NCBI GenBank assembly: GCA_000004695.1
Contig: CM000152.2
Location: 4,384,001-4,448,000, forward strand
Origin: Dictyostelium discoideum
Taxonomy: Eukaryota
Length of the DNA: 64,000 nucleotides
Direction: 5' to 3'
Shown here: positions 16,356 through 56,920 of the stretch, one piece after another
Layout: each line of letters opens with the position of its first letter
Numbering within the stretch: the first letter of the stretch is position 1
The notes under the pieces: generated by a model
What the model saw: only the letters and a program-made list of their open reading frames with translations
Databases searched by the model: none
What the model was told of the DNA's origin: nothing
Translations under genes and position numbers: made by a program

Positions 16356-16426
16356 TGCGTATGCTGGGAATCGAACCCAGTTCGCATCCGTGGCAGGGAT
16401 GCATCATACCACTAGACCACATACGC
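16356..16426 (-). tRNA. tRNA-Gly (anticodon GCC), 71 nt
   Basis: Reverse complement folds as a canonical cloverleaf. Acceptor stem GCGTATG/CATACGC. Anticodon stem CATCC/GGATG with loop CTGCCAC. T-arm CTGGG-TTCGATT-CCCAG. Discriminator A. Identical to the copy at 29344..29414. Confidence 0.95.
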
Positions 16427-25128: not shown

Positions 25129-25216
25129 ATTGAATGATGATATATCACCGCCCCAGTCATAATTTTTGTGCTGATTCGGATTTACAGAACACGCCAGTTT
25201 TGCTTCTGACACCAAT
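25129..25216 (+). ncRNA. Candidate box C/D snoRNA (about 88 nt)
   Basis: 5' ATTG-aa-TGATGA (C box at 25135-25140)...CTGA (D' at 25171-25174)...CTGA (D at 25206-25209)-cac-CAAT 3'. The 4-bp terminal stem ATTG/CAAT flanks the C and D boxes. The surrounding region is an intergenic non-AT island with no ORF. Confidence 0.35.
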
Positions 25217-25412: not shown

Positions 25413-25482
25413 TTGAATGATGAAACAAACAGACCTGATCTGAACAGTCAATGTTGACCAAAACTAAGAAGTTCTGACTCAA
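25413..25482 (+). ncRNA. Candidate box C/D snoRNA (about 70 nt), about 200 nt downstream of the first candidate, same orientation
   Basis: 5' TTGA-ATGATGA (C box at 25417-25423)...CTGA (25435-25438, D'-like)...CTGA (D at 25474-25477)-c-TCAA 3', with terminal stem TTGA/TCAA. Confidence 0.3.
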
Positions 25483-29343: not shown

Positions 29344-29414
29344 GCGTATGTGGTCTAGTGGTATGATGCATCCCTGCCACGGATGCGAACTGGGTTCGAT
29401 TCCCAGCATACGCA
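29344..29414 (+). tRNA. tRNA-Gly (anticodon GCC), 71 nt, identical to the copy at 16356..16426
   Basis: GCGTATG-TG-GTCTAGTGGTATGAT-GCATCCCTGCCACGGATGC-GAA-CTGGGTTCGATTCCCAG-CATACGC-A. Canonical cloverleaf, anticodon loop CT-GCC-AC. Confidence 0.95.
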
Positions 29415-29445
29415 CAAATTTTAAATGCCTGATTTATTAGATCAA

Positions 29446-49624: not shown

Positions 49625-50218
49625 ATGGCTGATTCAGATGTTAAAAAAGTTACTAAAGGAGAAAAGAAGACTCGTGAAGCTATGAAAAAATTAGGTTTAG
49701 CTCCAGTCAGTGATATCTTCCGTGTTACCATTAAACAAAAAGAAGGTGTAAGTATTTTTTTTTTTTTTTTTTTTTTATTATTTTATATTTTAAGCAACAC
49801 AAAAAATATTAATAAAATTTTTTAAATAAATAAATATAAATGAAAATTATATATATAGGTCTTAGTTGTTGTTGCTGAACCAGAAGTTTATGCTTCCCCA
49901 TCAGGTGAAACCTACGTAGTTTTCGGTGACCACTCATTCGATGATATCGCCAGTCGTTTACAAAAAGCTGTCCCAAAGGCCAACGTTGATGACATCGTCA
50001 AAGCTGCCATGCCAGCACCAACTGCCGTCAAAGAATCTGAAGAATCAGAAGAAATCGTCGCTCAAGCCGTCGACAGCTTTGATTACAAAGGTGTCAACCC
50101 AAAGGATGTCGAAGTCGTCATGAAGGAAACTAAAGCCTCAAGAGAAAAAGTCGTTGAAACTTTAATTGCCACCAAAAACGATCTCGTCTCTGCTGTCTTA
50201 GAACTCACCACCAACTAA
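49625..50218 (+). CDS. nacA: Nascent polypeptide-associated complex alpha subunit (NAC-alpha) with C-terminal UBA domain, 2 exons: approx. join(49625..49745, 49866..50218)
   Basis: MADSDVKKVTKGEKKTREAMKKLGLAPVSDIFRVTIKQKE | VVVAEPEVYASPSGETYVVFGD... aligns by eye with the NAC A/B domain of NACA/Egd2. The C-terminal UBA-like block is NDLVSAVLELTTN. Only the donor GT at 49746 (GTGTAAGT) paired with the acceptor CCTTAG at 49865 keeps the frame. The better-looking GTAAGT at 49748 and TATATAG at 49857 do not. The exact join is therefore uncertain. Confidence 0.8.
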
Positions 50219-50231
50219 ATAAATTTCTAAA

Positions 50232-50273
<42 letters not shown>

Positions 50274-50307
50274 ATCATTATTTTATTTATTTTTATATTT
50301 AAAGATT

Positions 50308-50535
50308 TCATGTAATTTACAATGTAGCAGTATATCACCAAATGAAATATTTTATTACAGTGATCAAAACTTAAGTTCAAATGAAACTGATATTATAAAT
50401 AGTACTGATTGTTTATCATGCCATTCAAATTCATTTGTTAATGAAATATCAGGACTATTATATCCATCTCCAATTAGGCTCAACATCATTCCATTGTGAT
50501 GTTAAAATTGAAGAAATTAAATTATCATTAATTTA
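50308..50535 (+). pseudogene. Duplicated 3'-end fragment (about 230 bp, roughly 90% identity) of the downstream tgr-like gene. No start, truncated.
   Basis: TCATGTAATTTACAATGTAG...ATGAAATATCAGGAC...CCAATTAGGCTCAACATCATT...GATGTTAAAATTGAAGAAATTAAATTATCA matches 53768..53990 of the tgr-like CDS. That is the last IPT/TIG-distal extracellular segment before the TM helix. There are scattered substitutions and indels. Confidence 0.8.
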
Positions 50536-51412
50536 CCACATTTTCTTTTTTTTTTACACACGAATAATATGGGGTGAATTTTTTATTATTTTTTGTAATT
50601 GTTTTTTTAATTATTATAAAAAATAATTAAATATTTAATAATCAAAATAAAAAAATAATTCTAAAAAAAGAATGAAAATAATTAAAATCTAGATAGTAGC
50701 TGTTAAATACCATGTTACCACCATTATCAGTAAGTACCCTCCATTTTAGTGAGAACCAGTAAATACGGGTAGGAAAAGTTTCTTTCAATGGGCTACATAT
50801 CGAGACTTCAATTATCCAATTATTTGGGGTTAAAAACTCTTCTCTTAGAATGTGCCCGAATAATGGGAAGCACCTAGTGTAATAAAATAAAAAAAAAAAA
50901 AAAAAAAATTAAATTCACACACCAAAAAAAAAAAAAAAAGATTAAATTTTAACCTTCCTAATAAAAAAATTTACAACAAAAATTATTTTTTATTTTTTAA
51001 AATGTGTTTCAACAAAAAAAACAACACCAACCCCTTACCCCTTTTCAAATTAATGGAACTCCGCAATCATGCTCATTCACCAGATAGAATCTATTTTTAG
51101 AATTTTCATTTTGTTTTTTTTTTTTTTCATTATTTTTATTTTTATTATTATATTTTCTTTTTTTATTTTTTTATTATTATTATATTATTTTATTATATTT
51201 TTTTTTGTTTTATTTTTAATTTTATTATTTCTTTATATTTTTAATTTAATTTTTATTCATTTTTTTTTCCATTTATTTATTAAAAATTGTTTTTATTATT
51301 AATTTTTTTTAGAAAATTTTTTTTTCCAGTTATTATTAAATTTCTCTTTTTTAATTTATTTTATAAAATTACTTATGTAGTCAAATTCAAAAAATAAGAA
51401 TTTTTGATAGAA

Positions 51413-54134
51413 ATGGAACAGAAAATAATAATTCTATTTTTATTTTTGTTCTCAATTTTTAAATTAGGATATTCAGTGAAACCATCACCAATTGGTAAGT
51501 TTCATTATATTTTTAATTATATAAATAATTAGTTTATGTAATTAATTTTTTTTTTTAGATGTAATATATGAAGATAAATCATTTACATTTATTTTTAATA
51601 GTAATCTCCCATATTTTACCCGTTTAATTTTATATCAAAACCAAACAACACCCAGAAATGAAATGGCACCAAATTATTTTGATTGTAGCCTAGTTGTTGC
51701 TAATAAGAGACATTGTTTATTCCATTCAGATGAGCCATTCTCAAGACTATGGGGTAGTATTTACAGTAAGATATGTGCAAGAAATGTATCAAGTCCAGTA
51801 GAGGATTGTTCATTAAGGGTTTCAGCTTTGGATTTTTATCCATTACCATCTAATTTGAAATATAGTAAAAAACCAAAAACGTCTGGGGAAGATATAATAA
51901 TTACTGGTTCATATTTAAGATTCATGGGTGGTCCTAATTTCCTTATAAATTCCTTTGATTTTGATAATCCTTTTATTGTTAAAGGTAATTTCTCTGATCC
52001 ATCTTTTGACTGTAATTATCTTACTGTAACTATTCCACCAGGATCTGGAAAGTGTGAATTGTACTATGATGAAACTGGTTTATTTTCTGTCCCATTTTCA
52101 TACGAATCACCTAAAATATCAAGTACTGTTTCTAACTTATCAAAACAAATATTAGTAATTAATGGTGATAACTTCTTTACAAATAAAAACTTGGTTAGGG
52201 TTTCTTTTGATGGTATTAATCAACCCAATTTTATTATTTCAGTAAATCATACACAAATTCAAGTGAATAACTTTAATAGAGTCGACCCTGGCCCAATGTC
52301 TGTTAATGTATCTGTCGATGGTATCTCAATTGAAAACAATTATATTCATTGTTCCCCAGCAATAATAACATCAATATCATCAGTATCAAATCATTTGGGT
52401 GGTACTGTAACAATTAAAGGTGAAAAATTATCTTCAACTTTAAATTCATCATTGACTCCATCGATTACAATTGGTGATAAAAAGTGTATATTTATTAGAT
52501 CAAAAATAACCGAATTGGAATGTCGATTGGATCCAAATGAATATGGTGGTAAGAGTTTATCAGTTGACGTTAATTTCGGTGGTTGTAGTTCAACAAGTCC
52601 TAATGGCGTATCATTTACATATAATTTTCCCACATTATCAAGTGGATCATATTCAAATGGTATCGTTACATTAATTGGTACAAATCTTGGTACAAATAAA
52701 GAATCACTCATTCAATTATATGGTAATGAAATAAACGATAATATAAGTATTGACCAATTTAATGTATCATCAGATGAAAAGACTTTATCATTTAAATTAC
52801 CTCTTTTAAGATGTAAATCATTTAATATTAAACTCACTCGTTCAAATATTTCCTCAAATACACTTTCAATTTCTGCATCATTAATAATAAATGTAATAAG
52901 TAGATCAACAGTATCAAATGGAACATTAAATATTGAAATATATTATATGGATTGTCAAGTAAGTTCATCACCAAGTATTACTGTTGGTAATTCATTTTCA
53001 CCCACACAATGTTCGATACCATTACAATCTTTAACATCTGGTTACTATGAAACAACATGTCCAACACCATATGGTACTGGTATTAACAAACAATTCTTAT
53101 TCAAATTAAACTCAGAGACAGTGAGTGATGAATTTTCATATGCTCTCCCAACAGTCCAGAATAGTAAAATTTCTCAAGGTAATATAACATTTCATGGTAA
53201 CAATTTCGGTAATTCAACATCATTAGTTCAAGTATATTTAAATGGTAGTGATATTACATCAGAAATTCTAGAATTGGAAGATCATCAATTTACTATTAAA
53301 AAATTGGATTCATTTGAAAATGGTCCAATTAATATTACTGTAGATGGCAATAATATGGAGTTATTATTTAATTTAAAATTACCACCTGTCATTTATGGTA
53401 TAACAAATAAAGATAATAAAGCAATTGCTTGTGGAGGTCTTATCACAATTTCTGGTAAAAATTTATTGACAAGTGACAATGAATTCAAAGTTAAGGTATT
53501 TGCAAATAAAAGAAATACTACAGTAATTGTTCAAGATGAAAAGATATTAATAGTTAGAGATGAAAGTAAAGAAAGCCCACTCTTTGTTTCAACATTGATT
53601 GGAGATGATTTAGGACCAAATGCAATATTGACATATTTAGAACCAAAGATTACAGTAATTCCACCTATTAAAATTAAAAAAGAAGGGATTTCAATAAGAG
53701 TGGGTGGCGTTAGTTTTCCAGGTATTTTTAATGCTGGCTTAGCACTTTCATCAGAAAATGTTTCTCTTTCATGTAATTTACAATGTAGTTTATCACCAAA
53801 TGAAATATTATATTACAGTGATCAAAACTTAAGTTCAAGTGAAACTGATATTACAGATAGTACTGATTGTTTATCTTGCCATTCAAATTCATCTGTTGAT
53901 GAAATATCAGGACTTTTATATCTCCAATTAGGCTCAACATCATTTAATTACGATGTTAAAATTGAAAAAGTTAAATTATCACTATCACCATCACCATCAA
54001 ACGGTTCTGAAAGAAATAGCAATTCATCCAAACTATCAGGTGGTGCAATTGCAGGTATTACAATTGGTTGTGTCGCTGCCGTTGGTCTCTTTGTTTTTCT
54101 CTTTGGTTTTGTCTTTATTAAAAAAGCTCGCTGA
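51413..54134 (+). CDS. tgr-family (TgrB/TgrC-like) IPT/TIG-repeat single-pass transmembrane protein, about 885 aa, 2 exons: join(51413..51494, 51559..54134)
   Basis: Exon 1 encodes a signal peptide ([27 protein letters not shown]) and ends at GTAAGT. Acceptor ...TTTTTTAG at 51558, in frame with ORF 51663..54134. Multiple IPT/TIG-like repeats ([52 protein letters not shown]) with many N-glycosylation sequons. A single C-terminal TM helix ([26 protein letters not shown]) and a 5-residue cytoplasmic tail (KKAR). This architecture and size match the Dictyostelium Tgr (LagC/LagB-type) family. Confidence 0.7.
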
Positions 54135-54398
54135 GGGGGAGAAAAAAGTAAGATTCATAGTTTTATGAGAAATTTTACTAGGTCAATTTCTCACGGGAAG
54201 ATAAAATAATATAAAAAGAAAATGTAAATTTCAAATCACAAATCACATATTGGTAAAATTAAAACTTAAAAAACTTAAAATAAAATAAATAAAGATAAAA
54301 TAAAATAAAAAATTTAATTTAACATATGTTTATTTATTTTATTTTATTTTTACCATATATATATACAAGGCATTCACTTATTTATTTATTTATTTATT

Positions 54399-54429
<31 letters not shown>

Positions 54430-55594
54430 TTTTTGAGTGAATTTGCAATCCAATCAGATCTTTCATATATACCATTTGATTTAATGGCACTGCATATTTA
54501 GTTGAATATACGATTTTCTATCTTTAATTGAATTTAAATTTAAAGAGTTTACAATTTCTGCGGTATTCATTGCATTGAAAATTTTTATGTTCAATAGTTC
54601 AACCCGGTGGTTGGAATGGTTGTAACAACATCACCCAATTTTAATTTATATACATGTATTGACTTTACCTACACAATAAAGTCCTATCATTAATATTCTT
54701 GTATCTTTTCTAACTTCAAATAGAATATCTAACGTTGAAAAAATATGATTACATTTTATTTTATTTATTTTATTTTATTTTATTTTATTCTATTTTATTT
54801 TATTTTATTTTATTTTATTTTATTTTATTTTAATTATATTTATTAAATGAATTTATTTTATTTATTTTTATTAATTTGTTTTATTTTTTTATTTTATTTT
54901 TTTATTTTCTTTAATAACAAATGAATACACACAACTGGACCATGACCACCTGTTTGGGAAATGGTTTTGGTTTGGTTGAAGTTCTAAAAAATGAGTTGAT
55001 TTTATTGTATGAAATAAAAAAAAGAAAAGTGAAAAAACTTGGTATATATATATTTTTTTTGTTAATTTATTTTGATTATTTATATATTACATATATTAAA
55101 ATTTAAAAAAAAAAAAACTATTTTATAAAACATATATGATTGTTGTTGTTATTGGATGAGCATATTTTGGTCAAATGACAATTTTTTTTTTTATTTTATT
55201 TTATTTTTTTTATTTTTTTTTTTTTAATTATTTTTTTTTAATTTTTTTTTTTTAAATTAAAAAATTTTTTTTTTTAAAAAATTTTTTTTTTTTTTTTTTT
55301 TTAATAACCCCTGTGCCCATAGTAATAATAAAAAAAAAAAATAAAAAAAAGATTTGTTTGTTTTTTTTTTTTTTTTTAAAATAAAAAATAATAAATAATA
55401 ATAAATATACACTATATAATAAGAAACAATATAGTTTGTGTGTATACAATCTTCTGTAATAAATAATAATAACAATAATAATAATAAAAATAATAATAAC
55501 AATAATAATAAATTAAAAACTTTTTTGAAAAAAAAATAAAAAAAAAAATAAAAAAAAAATTAAAGTATGTTCATTATTTTTATTTAAAATACCA

Positions 55595-55810: not shown

Positions 55811-56920
55811 ATGGATAAATATTATCGTGTTCCAAGAACATATGATAATGATACAGAAGCAAATGAAGTTAGAATCGGAGGTGTACATAGTCAAGTTAGT
55901 TCATCAATTGAATATGGATTAAATTTATTTAACAAACCACATGATTCGATCATTGTTAAAGCAATTGGTAGTAAGATGATATCAAAAGCAATATTCACAG
56001 CAGAGATCATTAAACTTAGAGTACCAGGATTACATCAAATCACAGAGATAGGTACCACAGAGATCGTCACTCAATACATGCCAAAGGAAGAAGGTTTGGA
56101 TAAAGTTGAAATCTCAAAAAAGTCTGCCTTCATCAAAATTACTTTATCGAAAACACCATTGGATACAACTAATCCAGGTTATCAACCACCTCTTCCAGAA
56201 TCGGAAACTCAAAAGAAACCAACAAGACCAAGAGATTACTCACCACGTAGAACTAGAGGTGGATTTAGAGGTGGCAGTAGTGGTGGATTTAGAGGTGGTA
56301 GTGGTGGTGGATTTAGAGGTAGAGGTAGAGGTGGTGGTTTTAGAGGTAGTAGTTCTCATCCTTCAACAGCAACAGACAATACAGCAGCAACAACAACAAC
56401 AACTTCACCATCAACGTCTACTACATCACCAACAACAACGACAACAACAACAGCACCAGTTGAACAACAACAACAACAACAACAACAACAATATCAACCT
56501 TCAGATAGTGGATTCAGAGGTAGAGGTAGAGGTGGATTTAGAGGTCGTGGTAGAGGTAGAGGTGGATTTAGAGGTCGTGGAAGAGGTAGAGGTGGATTTA
56601 GAGGTCGTGGAAGAGGTAGAGGTGGATTTAGAGGTGGTTCACCATTAAATAGTAATTATCAAGAATCAGAATCATCTTCATCAACAACCAATACAACAAA
56701 TACTGCAACTACATCAGCAACAAATAATTCACCAAATCCAACAACAATAACAACAACAGAAGGTAATGATTTTAGACCAAGAAGAGGTAGAGGTGGATTT
56801 AGAGGTAGAGGTGGATTCAGAGGTCGTGGTGGAAATAGATCATCAAGTAATTCTCCTTCATCATCTCCAAATCCAACAACAACAACTACAACATCAACAA
56901 CTTCTCCTACTCCAAAATAA
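55811..56920 (+). CDS. Alba-domain (Rpp25/Pop6/Mdp2-like) nucleic-acid-binding protein with a long RGG/GFRG-repeat, S/T-rich C-terminal tail, 369 aa, apparently single exon
   Basis: The N-terminal about 110 aa (NEVRIGGVHSQVSSSIEYGLNLFNK...DSIIVKAIGSKMISKAIFTAEIIKLRVPGLHQITEIGTTEIV) fits the Alba fold pattern. The rest is GGFRG/RGRG repeats separated by T/S/N-rich linkers. Confidence 0.7.
   Translation: MDKYYRVPRTYDNDTEANEVRIGGVHSQVSSSIEYGLNLFNKPHDSIIVKAIGSKMISKAIFTAEIIKLRVPGLHQITEIGTTEIVTQYMPKEEGLDKVEISKKSAFIKITLSKTPLDTTNPGYQPPLPESETQKKPTRPRDYSPRRTRGGFRGGSSGGFRGGSGGGFRGRGRGGGFRGSSSHPSTATDNTAATTTTTSPSTSTTSPTTTTTTTAPVEQQQQQQQQQYQPSDSGFRGRGRGGFRGRGRGRGGFRGRGRGRGGFRGRGRGRGGFRGGSPLNSNYQESESSSSTTNTTNTATTSATNNSPNPTTITTTEGNDFRPRRGRGGFRGRGGFRGRGGNRSSSNSPSSSPNPTTTTTTSTTSPTPK
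56512..56640 (+). repeat. Tandem 30-bp coding repeat (GGTAGAGGTGGATTTAGAGGTCGTGGAAGA, about 4 units, nearly identical) encoding (GRGGFRGRGR)n
   Basis: Nucleotide-identical tandem units inside the Alba-RGG CDS. This points to recent expansion by slippage or unequal exchange. Confidence 0.85.

Follow-up and report, generated by a model that had tools for sequence, protein, structure and literature searches.

Close relatives of the locus studied here are known from the tgrBC cluster of Dictyostelium discoideum. In this cluster, tgrC1 is the gene for the kin-recognition ligand and is paired with tgrB1, a divergent partner on a shared promoter. TgrC1 has a signal peptide, TIG/Ig repeats, one transmembrane segment and a very short tail, and the tgrB1-tgrC1 pair has an elevated divergence between strains. 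The tgrC2 and tgrC3 genes of the cluster lie tail-to-tail with intact Arf genes of 188 aa. Incomplete copies are also known in the family: AX4 has 26 tgr pseudogenes, and many truncated homologs are found among 777 tblastx hits in Dictyostelium genomes (10.1101/2025.08.01.668227). The partial tgr pseudogenes described so far are truncated and frameshifted, lie beside an intact tgr gene and vary between strains in presence or size. The literature on tgrC5 (DDB_G0281407, listed as tgrC5_Ax4 in a supplementary table) is limited to a transcript that is cAMP-dependent and induced during development, or to low or no expression, and reports polymorphism lower than that of tgrC1.

Here, we analyzed a window of 64,000 nucleotides of D. 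discoideum chromosome 3, AX4-type, that contains tgrC5 and a fragment resembling its 3′ coding region. The finding is of a known kind. tgrC5 is already annotated, and the birth-and-death evolution of the family is documented to leave partial tgr copies behind. The fragment is like the described partial pseudogenes in all the features listed above. Unlike them, it is found not in the tgrBC hotspot but where a transposed block begins, and its junction can be dated against empty sites.

Results

The gene at 51413-54134 on the forward strand consists of exon 1 (51413-51494), an intron (51495-51558) and exon 2 (51559-54134). Its spliced translation of 885 aa matches exactly the deposited AX4 tgrC5 protein (XP_640656.1 / EAL66685.1), and the published tgrC5 qPCR primers have one site each, at 53733-53754 and 54070-54089. 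Pfam recognizes Ig_TgrO1 (78.7 bits, two stretches) and TIG (71.2 bits, five stretches) in the product. As read from the translation, the N-terminus is hydrophobic and signal-like, and a single 26-residue hydrophobic (transmembrane) segment near the C-terminus is followed by the tail KKAR, an architecture shared with TgrC1. The closest named relatives are the TgrC1/LagC proteins with 70-72% identity, compared with 62% for tgrD1, and the gene is a paralog of tgrC1 in the TgrC branch. The original prediction of a Tgr-family IPT/TIG transmembrane gene is thus confirmed by the Pfam domains and the exact match, and the gene is an already annotated member of the Tgr (‘tiger’) family.

Unlike tgrC1, tgrC5 has no divergent tgrB partner on a shared promoter, and unlike the tgrB1-tgrC1 pair it is 850 kb away from the tgrBC cluster. 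Its upstream neighbour is nacA (DDB_G0281403, 160 aa; 49625-50218, exons 49625-49747 and 49859-50218) on the same strand, whose spliced translation is identical to EAL66683.1 and whose orthologs have Pfam NAC/UBA_HYPK on record. The nacA stop codon (50216-50218) is overlapped by an AATAAA motif and an A-run comes next. The upstream or promoter region of tgrC5 (50880-51412, forward strand) is common to the other block-bearing strains and has a C-rich element (about 51018-51045) that is conserved in another of these strains. Its last ~180 bp are 73% identical to the upstream sequence of an 865-aa cluster paralog (tgrC2 or tgrC3). Elevated divergence between strains is common to tgrC5 and the tgrB1-tgrC1 pair. 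Between AX4 and ACTFIR/ACTFIW, the tgrC5 proteins are 85% identical and the DNA is 91-92% identical, compared with 97-98% in the flanks. With dS of 0.15 and dN/dS of 0.43-0.49, the four alleles give no signal of diversifying selection over the whole gene.

Between nacA and this promoter lies a fragment of 225 bp (50306-50530, forward strand), which is a copy of the membrane-proximal extracellular coding segment of tgrC5 (53767-53984). A repeat search aligned 50329-50464 with 53787-53922 (93%) and 50466-50530 with 53920-53984 (89%), and MAFFT and BLAST widened the match to the full intervals, with 89.8-90.5% identity over about 222-225 bp. The match is well beyond chance, with BLAST E-values of ~1e-80 for matches of this kind, and the juxtamembrane copy of about 90% identity that had been noticed upstream of the promoter is therefore real. 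The two copies are on the same strand, 3,458-3,461 bp from start to start, with a gap of 3.23 kb; the fragment starts 88 bp past the nacA stop codon and ends 0.88 kb upstream of the tgrC5 ATG. It spans residues about 764-836 of TgrC5 and is truncated at both ends; the transmembrane region, the stop codon and the downstream sequence expected beyond it are absent. Relative to the gene, it carries GCA (+3 bp) after 50328 and +4 bp near 50463-50466, and the latter shifts the frame. As originally stated, it lacks a start codon: there is no in-frame ATG, and the ATG at 50310 runs immediately into TAA. Truncated at both ends, with a broken frame and no start codon, the fragment is, as far as its sequence tells, a gene relic, that is, a non-processed partial pseudogene, and presumably without function. 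In a tblastn search of the tgrC5 product against the whole 64-kb window no match was found beyond tgrC5 and the fragment, and the Tgr literature searched contained no mention of the fragment.

A GenBank model for the AX2 assembly, KAM9950156.1, reads nacA and the fragment as one gene. It places an intron at 50195-50304 on the forward strand (donor GTCTTA, acceptor AAAG), which is the sole GT-AG intron giving a 217-aa product. This product, deposited in NCBI as exactly this protein, joins NacA residues 1-153 to the open frame of the fragment, with the stop codon at 50497-50499.

The spacer between the fragment and the promoter differs between AX4 and the three other block-bearing strains. In AX4 it contains a non-AT-rich island (50690-50880) with a 165-bp, frameshifted relic of a different IPT/TIG-type (tgr-like) gene on the minus strand (50678-50842), present at this locus in AX4/AX2 only. 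The homolog of this relic, KAM9999421.1, was found by an exhaustive HMMER search, and the paralog neighbouring that homolog has a Pfam TIG match. When the island homolog was compared with the TgrC alignment by hhalign, the match was collinear, yet without significance (Prob 5%). For the island's open frame of 70 codons there is no Pfam match and no word-based homolog, and Rfam returned nothing for the nacA-tgrC5 spacer, either at gathering thresholds over the whole window or at E <= 1 for 50200-51420. About 160 bp that replace the island in the three other strains have no detectable relative. No tgrB partner for tgrC5 was found in the 64-kb window; the only Tgr-like sequence on the minus strand is this TIG-type relic. 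One of the relics of the locus may already be annotated as DDB_G0281405, an identifier numbered between those of nacA and tgrC5.

Three genomes, ACTFIZ (a strain of D. cf. discoideum), D. citrinum and D. firmibasis, have no tgr gene here and reveal that tgrC5 is part of a lineage-specific block of about 4.9 kb (50306 to about 55200) that was inserted. In these genomes nacA is directly followed, after ~0.9 kb, by the ortholog of the conserved 369-aa gene at 55811-56920 (forward strand). ACTFIZ is collinear with the window through ...TTTAAAGATT (50307), exactly where the fragment starts. The left junction of the block is placed to within some 2 bp and the right one only roughly, with the empty-site alignment resuming at 55202-55226. 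Four strains or lineages with the block were compared (AX4, ACTFIR, ACTFIW and ACTFIY), and among them the block is also an island of divergence.

Downstream of tgrC5, an Arf-like GTPase pseudogene lies on the minus strand (54402-54880, with protein-level remnants at 54435-54741). As seen with tblastn, it is interrupted by stops and frameshifts and has lost about 200 bp internally, and one stop is at a shared position in all four block-bearing strains. By blastn, this region is 89% and 75% identical to the Arf genes beside tgrC2 and tgrC3. Gene order and orientation are the same as in the tgrC2/tgrC3-Arf units, and the DNA homology sets in ~180 bp before the ATG and continues through the Arf gene. 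Unlike these units, the block has an Arf copy that is pseudogenized and internally deleted, and it lacks the cluster's neighbour gene of 314 aa. tgrC5 is demonstrably a transposed tgrC-Arf unit, and its empty sites have been mapped. Immediately to the right of the fragment, a motif resemblance noticed by eye (CACATTTT...ACACAC) looked like ancestral empty-site sequence, in which case the fragment would have been inserted separately; its score did not exceed that of random positions in the block, and it was rejected.

The left junction is the same in all four block-bearing strains, and what is left of the fragment there is 225 bp in AX4, ~155 bp in ACTFIY and ~30 bp in ACTFIR/ACTFIW, so the segment varies between strains and is largely deleted in three of the four lineages, as a dispensable relic would be. 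Since the junction is common to four lineages, the fragment is older than their split. Gap-tolerant alignments that apparently recovered the 3′ end of the fragment in one block-bearing strain were inconsistent with a second strain and were discarded.

The 23 substitutions between fragment and gene over 225 bp, polarized with only two paralogs, both from the AX2 genome, are assigned to the gene lineage (12), to the fragment (7, of which 5 are at its ragged 3′ edge) or to neither (4 ambiguous). At five sites, all four tgrC5 orthologs have the derived state and the fragment has the ancestral one, although such ‘ancestral’ states could also look so because a paralog had converted the fragment. At five of six readable gene-lineage sites, the ACTFIY fragment has the state of the AX4 fragment; it has 22 private changes against 1 in AX4, in a lineage with a longer branch and with a poor end alignment. 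The fragment had been called a decayed copy, which holds for its truncation and frameshift but not for most of its 10% divergence, which lies on the gene side.

Discussion

Our data suggest, with a probability of roughly 0.72 for the reading as a whole, that the fragment is an old, dead relic, left by the early tgrC5 lineage at the block edge, and not a recent duplication. A tgrC-Arf unit, of a kind still found in the tgrBC cluster about 850 kb away, would have been copied as a block of tgrC promoter, tgrC gene and tail-to-tail Arf-like gene. The last ancestor shared by the AX4, ACTFIR, ACTFIW and ACTFIY lineages, or an earlier one, would have acquired the block between nacA and the conserved gene that follows it. 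As its leftmost piece, the fragment would be a relic of the 3′ coding region of the early tgrC5 lineage, made during the insertion (for instance through a template switch, or if copying began inside an upstream tandem tgrC copy) or shortly after. Afterwards it may only have decayed, by two small insertions in AX4 and by shortening in ACTFIY, ACTFIR and ACTFIW. Most of the 10% difference is change in tgrC5, which diverges much faster than the flanking DNA. The position of the fragment at the edge of the whole insertion suggests that it arose in the transposition event or shortly afterwards, and not through ongoing activity. Because its start coincides with the left junction, we infer that fragment and tgrC5 arrived in one event; a duplication soon after the insertion followed by deletions would fit the sequences equally well. 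A search for a donor arrangement with a homologous spacer gave none, which weighs against the preferred reading, as do the AX4-specific spacer, the small counts (225 bp, 23 substitutions) and the many private changes of the ACTFIY fragment; the GT-AG intron that could join nacA to the fragment bears on its presumed lack of function.

Alternatively, the fragment may be not a copy of tgrC5 itself but the terminal part of a tgrC paralog that stood next to it in a tandem donor array, if the copied block ran from the 3′ end of an upstream gene through the next gene and its Arf neighbour. This is unlikely, although it would explain why the fragment is exactly at the left end of the block, and a comparable arrangement exists in the ACTFIZ cluster, where head-to-tail tgrC genes only 1.65 kb apart are followed by a minus-strand Arf gene. 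At the DNA level, the fragment is 89.8% identical to its own gene and almost as close, at 87.6%, to an 885-aa cluster paralog (tgrC2 or tgrC3), with 83.8% for the other tgrC2/C3-type paralog, and it shares 12 states with these paralogs against the AX4 gene. In contrast, three derived states place it with all tgrC5 orthologs against the two paralogs. Among 61 homologous proteins compared, TgrC5 (82%) and its orthologs (81, 79 and 77%) are closest to the translated fragment, with paralogs at <=77%, which speaks against derivation from another paralog. The tail of a neighbouring gene should moreover continue into a transmembrane region, a stop codon and downstream sequence, none of which follows the fragment. 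Neither the spacers upstream of tgrC2/C3 nor that of the tandem tgrC genes in ACTFIZ provides a donor arrangement with a homologous spacer; only promoter-proximal sequence is shared.

It is very doubtful that the fragment is a recent local duplication of the 3′ end of tgrC5, or an active donor or recipient of conversion with it, as the original prediction had proposed. The copies are on the same strand, 3.4 kb apart and 90% identical, and at 1-2 sites (alignment columns 80 and 254) the AX4 gene agrees with the AX4 fragment and not with the other orthologs. Fragments have also been proposed as recombination substrates in the tgr literature (10.1101/2025.08.01.668227). A recent origin is already contradicted by the identical junction in ACTFIY, ACTFIR and ACTFIW, by the five substitutions that are fixed in all orthologs and missing from the fragment, and by the deletions in three of the four lineages. 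These five differences also argue against a conversion donor, and there is no conversion tract between fragment and tgrC5, as their longest identical run (28 bp) is no longer than expected by chance (27.7 bp, P = 0.44).

Least probable of all is that the fragment is a genuine 3′-terminal exon of an alternative nacA transcript encoding the NacA(1-153)-Tgr-derived chimera of KAM9950156.1: past the GT...AG intron, the reading frame does stay open over 64 codons of the fragment, and the product is deposited for AX2, but the donor GTCTTA departs from the usual Dictyostelium GTAAGT used by both real introns here, the last 7 NacA residues, conserved across species, are dropped, the canonical 160-aa NacA is annotated in AX4 and three other assemblies, AATAAA overlaps the normal nacA stop, other D. 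discoideum strains have lost the would-be exon and its open frame ends only through a frameshift. The original prediction named as refuting evidence that the fragment belongs, as an exon with intact splice sites, to a larger unannotated gene; such a model exists with a GT-AG intron, but because of its poor donor and the deletion of the conserved NacA C-terminus we treat the fusion as probably an artefact of annotation (prediction).

The preferred reading, an old relic at the block edge, gives tgrC5 an internal, non-coding reference of the same age, against which its own rate of change can be judged. KAM9950156.1, probably an annotation error, is worth flagging. For the family, the useful outcome is tgrC5 as a transposed tgrC-Arf unit, with the left junction known to ~2 bp and mapped empty sites. 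More far-reaching, and improbable, are the ideas that the fragment preserves the ancestral membrane-proximal region of tgrC5 as a dated ‘fossil’, beside which the gene body, synonymous sites included, changes several-fold faster than adjacent non-functional tgr sequence, that it still serves as a recombination cassette for tgrC5, or that it is spliced onto nacA. If the ‘fossil’ were true, the divergence of tgrC5 would reflect gene-targeted diversification, by paralog conversion or transcription-linked mutation, rather than the regional mutation rate or old balanced haplotypes.

Identity and structure of tgrC5

The gene downstream of nacA encodes an 885-aa product from two exons (51413-51494 and 51559-54134) joined across an intron of the form GTAAGT...AG, and its translation matches exactly EAL66685.1 / XP_640656.1 / Q54U05 of strain AX4. 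The protein has a hydrophobic N-terminus, five stretches assigned to Pfam TIG and two to Ig_TgrO1, and a single C-terminal hydrophobic segment followed by the tail KKAR. Its named relatives are TgrC1/LagC (70-72% identity) and tgrD1 (62%). The published tgrC5 (DDB_G0281407) qPCR primers map once each, at 53733-53754 and 54070-54089 (PMC3640940), and DDB_G0281407 appears as tgrC5_Ax4 in a supplementary table of PMC12324515. Therefore, the assignment to the Tgr family in the original prediction is right, and the gene is the already annotated tgrC5. One paper reports its cAMP-dependent induction during development, at 6-15 h (PMC4739590), and a 2025 preprint counts it among the weakly expressed tgrC2-C5 paralogs (10.1101/2025.08.01.668227). 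Unlike tgrC1, which has a divergently transcribed tgrB partner, tgrC5 has none, and its upstream neighbour is nacA (DDB_G0281403) on the same strand. About 350 bp 5' of the tgrC5 ATG lie the C-rich element AACACCAACCCCTTACCCC and an adjoining non-AT-rich stretch (51018-51090); the element is also kept in D. discoideum ACTFIR and may be a regulatory site.

The upstream copy and its place in the nacA-tgrC5 spacer

A repeat search of the window paired 50329-50464 with 53787-53922 (93%) and 50466-50530 with 53920-53984 (89%), and alignment widened the repeat to 50306-50530 against 53767-53984 at ~90% identity. The upstream fragment carries insertions of 3 bp and 4 bp, the latter a frameshift. In tblastn of the tgrC5 product against the whole 64-kb window, nothing matched beyond tgrC5 itself and the fragment. 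The predicted partial copy of the gene's own 3' end is real. The published qPCR amplicon (53733-54089) covers the duplicated segment, and with both primers outside the copied part, co-amplification of the fragment is not expected.

Annotation of the AX2 assembly gives the NAC gene a 217-aa product (L003 3822-4689; window 50195-50499). The only GT-AG intron that yields 217 aa is 50195-50304, which joins NacA residues 1-153 to the open frame of the fragment, and KAM9950156.1 is exactly this product. The donor of the postulated intron, GTCTTA, is weak, the model drops the conserved NacA C-terminus, a 160-aa NacA is annotated in AX4 and three other assemblies, and the would-be fragment exon is deleted in other strains. 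KAM9950156.1 is probably a gene-prediction artefact.

The same spacer holds a second relic, a frameshifted IPT/TIG-type sequence on the minus strand (50678-50842) within a non-AT-rich 190-bp island (50690-50880). The island is found at this locus in AX4/AX2 only, and other strains have an unrelated 160-bp sequence there. Exhaustive HMMER with its minus-strand frame picked up a single relative, the D. cf. discoideum protein KAM9999421.1 (E = 2e-6); tblastn upholds the match (E = 6.6e-10), with the window copy frameshifted. Pfam places a TIG domain (26.3 bits) in a paralog adjoining KAM9999421.1, so the spacer relic derives from another TIG-type gene and is oriented divergently from tgrC5.

A lineage-specific insertion

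A syntenic tgrC5 ortholog lies 3' of nacA in D. discoideum ACTFIR (85% protein identity) and ACTFIW, and in D. cf. discoideum ACTFIY (82%). In ACTFIZ, D. citrinum and D. firmibasis, nacA is followed after ~0.9 kb by the ortholog of 55811-56920, with no tgr gene between them. The ACTFIZ empty site aligns collinearly with the window up to and including ...TTTAAAGATT (50307) and diverges beyond it, and alignment restarts at 55202 in ACTFIZ and 55226 in D. citrinum. These empty sites and breaks in collinearity show that 50306 to ~55200 is a lineage-specific insertion. Its left junction is the first base of the fragment and is identical in ACTFIY, ACTFIR and ACTFIW, where ~155 bp of the fragment remain in the first and ~30 bp in each of the others. 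The fragment is therefore older than the split of these lineages, old and common to all that bear the block.

Downstream of tgrC5, the block holds an Arf-like GTPase pseudogene on the minus strand (54402-54880). It matches, at 89% and 75%, the intact 188-aa Arf-like genes that adjoin tgrC2 and tgrC3, tail-to-tail, in the tgrBC cluster (3.65 Mb on the same chromosome, ~850 kb from tgrC5). Its translation shows a premature stop that all four strains share and, in the AX4 copy, an extra internal deletion of ~200 bp. In addition, ~180 bp 5' of the tgrC5 ATG match the upstream region of one tgrC2/tgrC3 paralog. Together, the Arf homology and this promoter-side match identify the block as a tgrC-Arf unit that has been copied and transposed. 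Near its right end is a short non-AT-rich stretch (54920-55010), absent from blastn matches to the compared cluster loci; its 500-bp bin is ~92% identical in other strains.

Age and divergence of the fragment

Of the 61 homologs compared with the frame-corrected translation of the fragment, TgrC5 (82%) and the TgrC5 orthologs (81/79/77%) are the most similar, with every paralog at 77% or below. In DNA identity to the fragment, its own gene stands at 89.8%, those of ACTFIR and ACTFIY at 89.3% and 87.6%, and the two tgrC2/C3-type paralogs at 87.6% and 83.8%. Three site states are common to the fragment and all tgrC5 orthologs against the paralogs, and at five sites the fragment retains the paralog state while all four tgrC5 orthologs share another. 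The fragment and the AX4 gene differ by 23 substitutions, of which 12 can be assigned to the gene lineage, 7 to the fragment and 4 to neither clearly; five of the seven on the fragment side lie within the final six columns of the alignment, and the ACTFIY fragment agrees with the ancestral base deduced at 5 of 6 readable sites. These shared and ancestral states and the polarity of the substitutions place the split of the fragment from the tgrC5 lineage early, and the AX4 fragment is little changed besides its two insertions. "Decayed", as the copy had been described, is thus misleading, since the gene carries most of the divergence.

The suggestion of a recent duplication, or a conversion donor, finds no support. 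The junction is common to four lineages, and fragment and tgrC5 share no identical run longer than 28 bp, where random placement of the differences between the copies predicts a longest run of 27.7 bp (P = 0.44). Nothing here points to a conversion tract of recent date.

Between AX4 and the other strains, the flanks are 97-98% identical and the block 91-92%. The block (50300-55200) is thus a divergence island against ACTFIR, ACTFIW and ACTFIY, non-coding parts included. For tgrC5, dS between strains is ~0.15 and dN/dS 0.43-0.49. Private changes are far fewer in the AX4 fragment than in the homologous tgrC5 segment, which hints that the gene body itself is fast-changing, although these are low counts and the fragment of ACTFIY, with 22 private changes, behaves otherwise.

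Proposed origin

The best-supported account has three steps. A single compound insertion would have brought a tgrC-Arf unit to the site between nacA and the gene that follows it. The leading edge of the copied block would have been at least ~225 bp of 3' coding sequence from a tgrC gene, acquired by template switching or because copying set out from within an upstream tandem tgrC gene. Separate deletions, different in each lineage, would have followed. In ACTFIZ (D. cf. discoideum, JBTAPI010000065.1), a cluster locus (L010 4981-17892) has three tgrC-type genes head-to-tail in tandem; the last two are 1.65 kb apart, and a minus-strand Arf gene comes after them. The spacer of these tandem genes has no homology to the nacA-tgrC5 spacer, and a search for ancestral, empty-site sequence right of the fragment found none. 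From the coincidence of the junction, we infer that the fragment and tgrC5 arrived together.

An 18-kb stretch of the window is 99.6% identical to chromosome CM142509.1 (GCA_054883475.1). Elsewhere in the window, the Dictyostelium snoRNA genes DdR13 (25131-25209) and DdR1 (25414-25479; both Rfam, plus strand) lie ~200 bp apart, and two tRNA-Gly(GCC) genes lie on opposite strands, at 16356-16426 (minus) and 29344-29415 (plus).

Fragments of tgr genes left by birth-and-death turnover have been described in two 2025 preprints (one being 10.1101/2025.08.01.668227). The fragment upstream of tgrC5 is a new, datable instance of these already known remnants.
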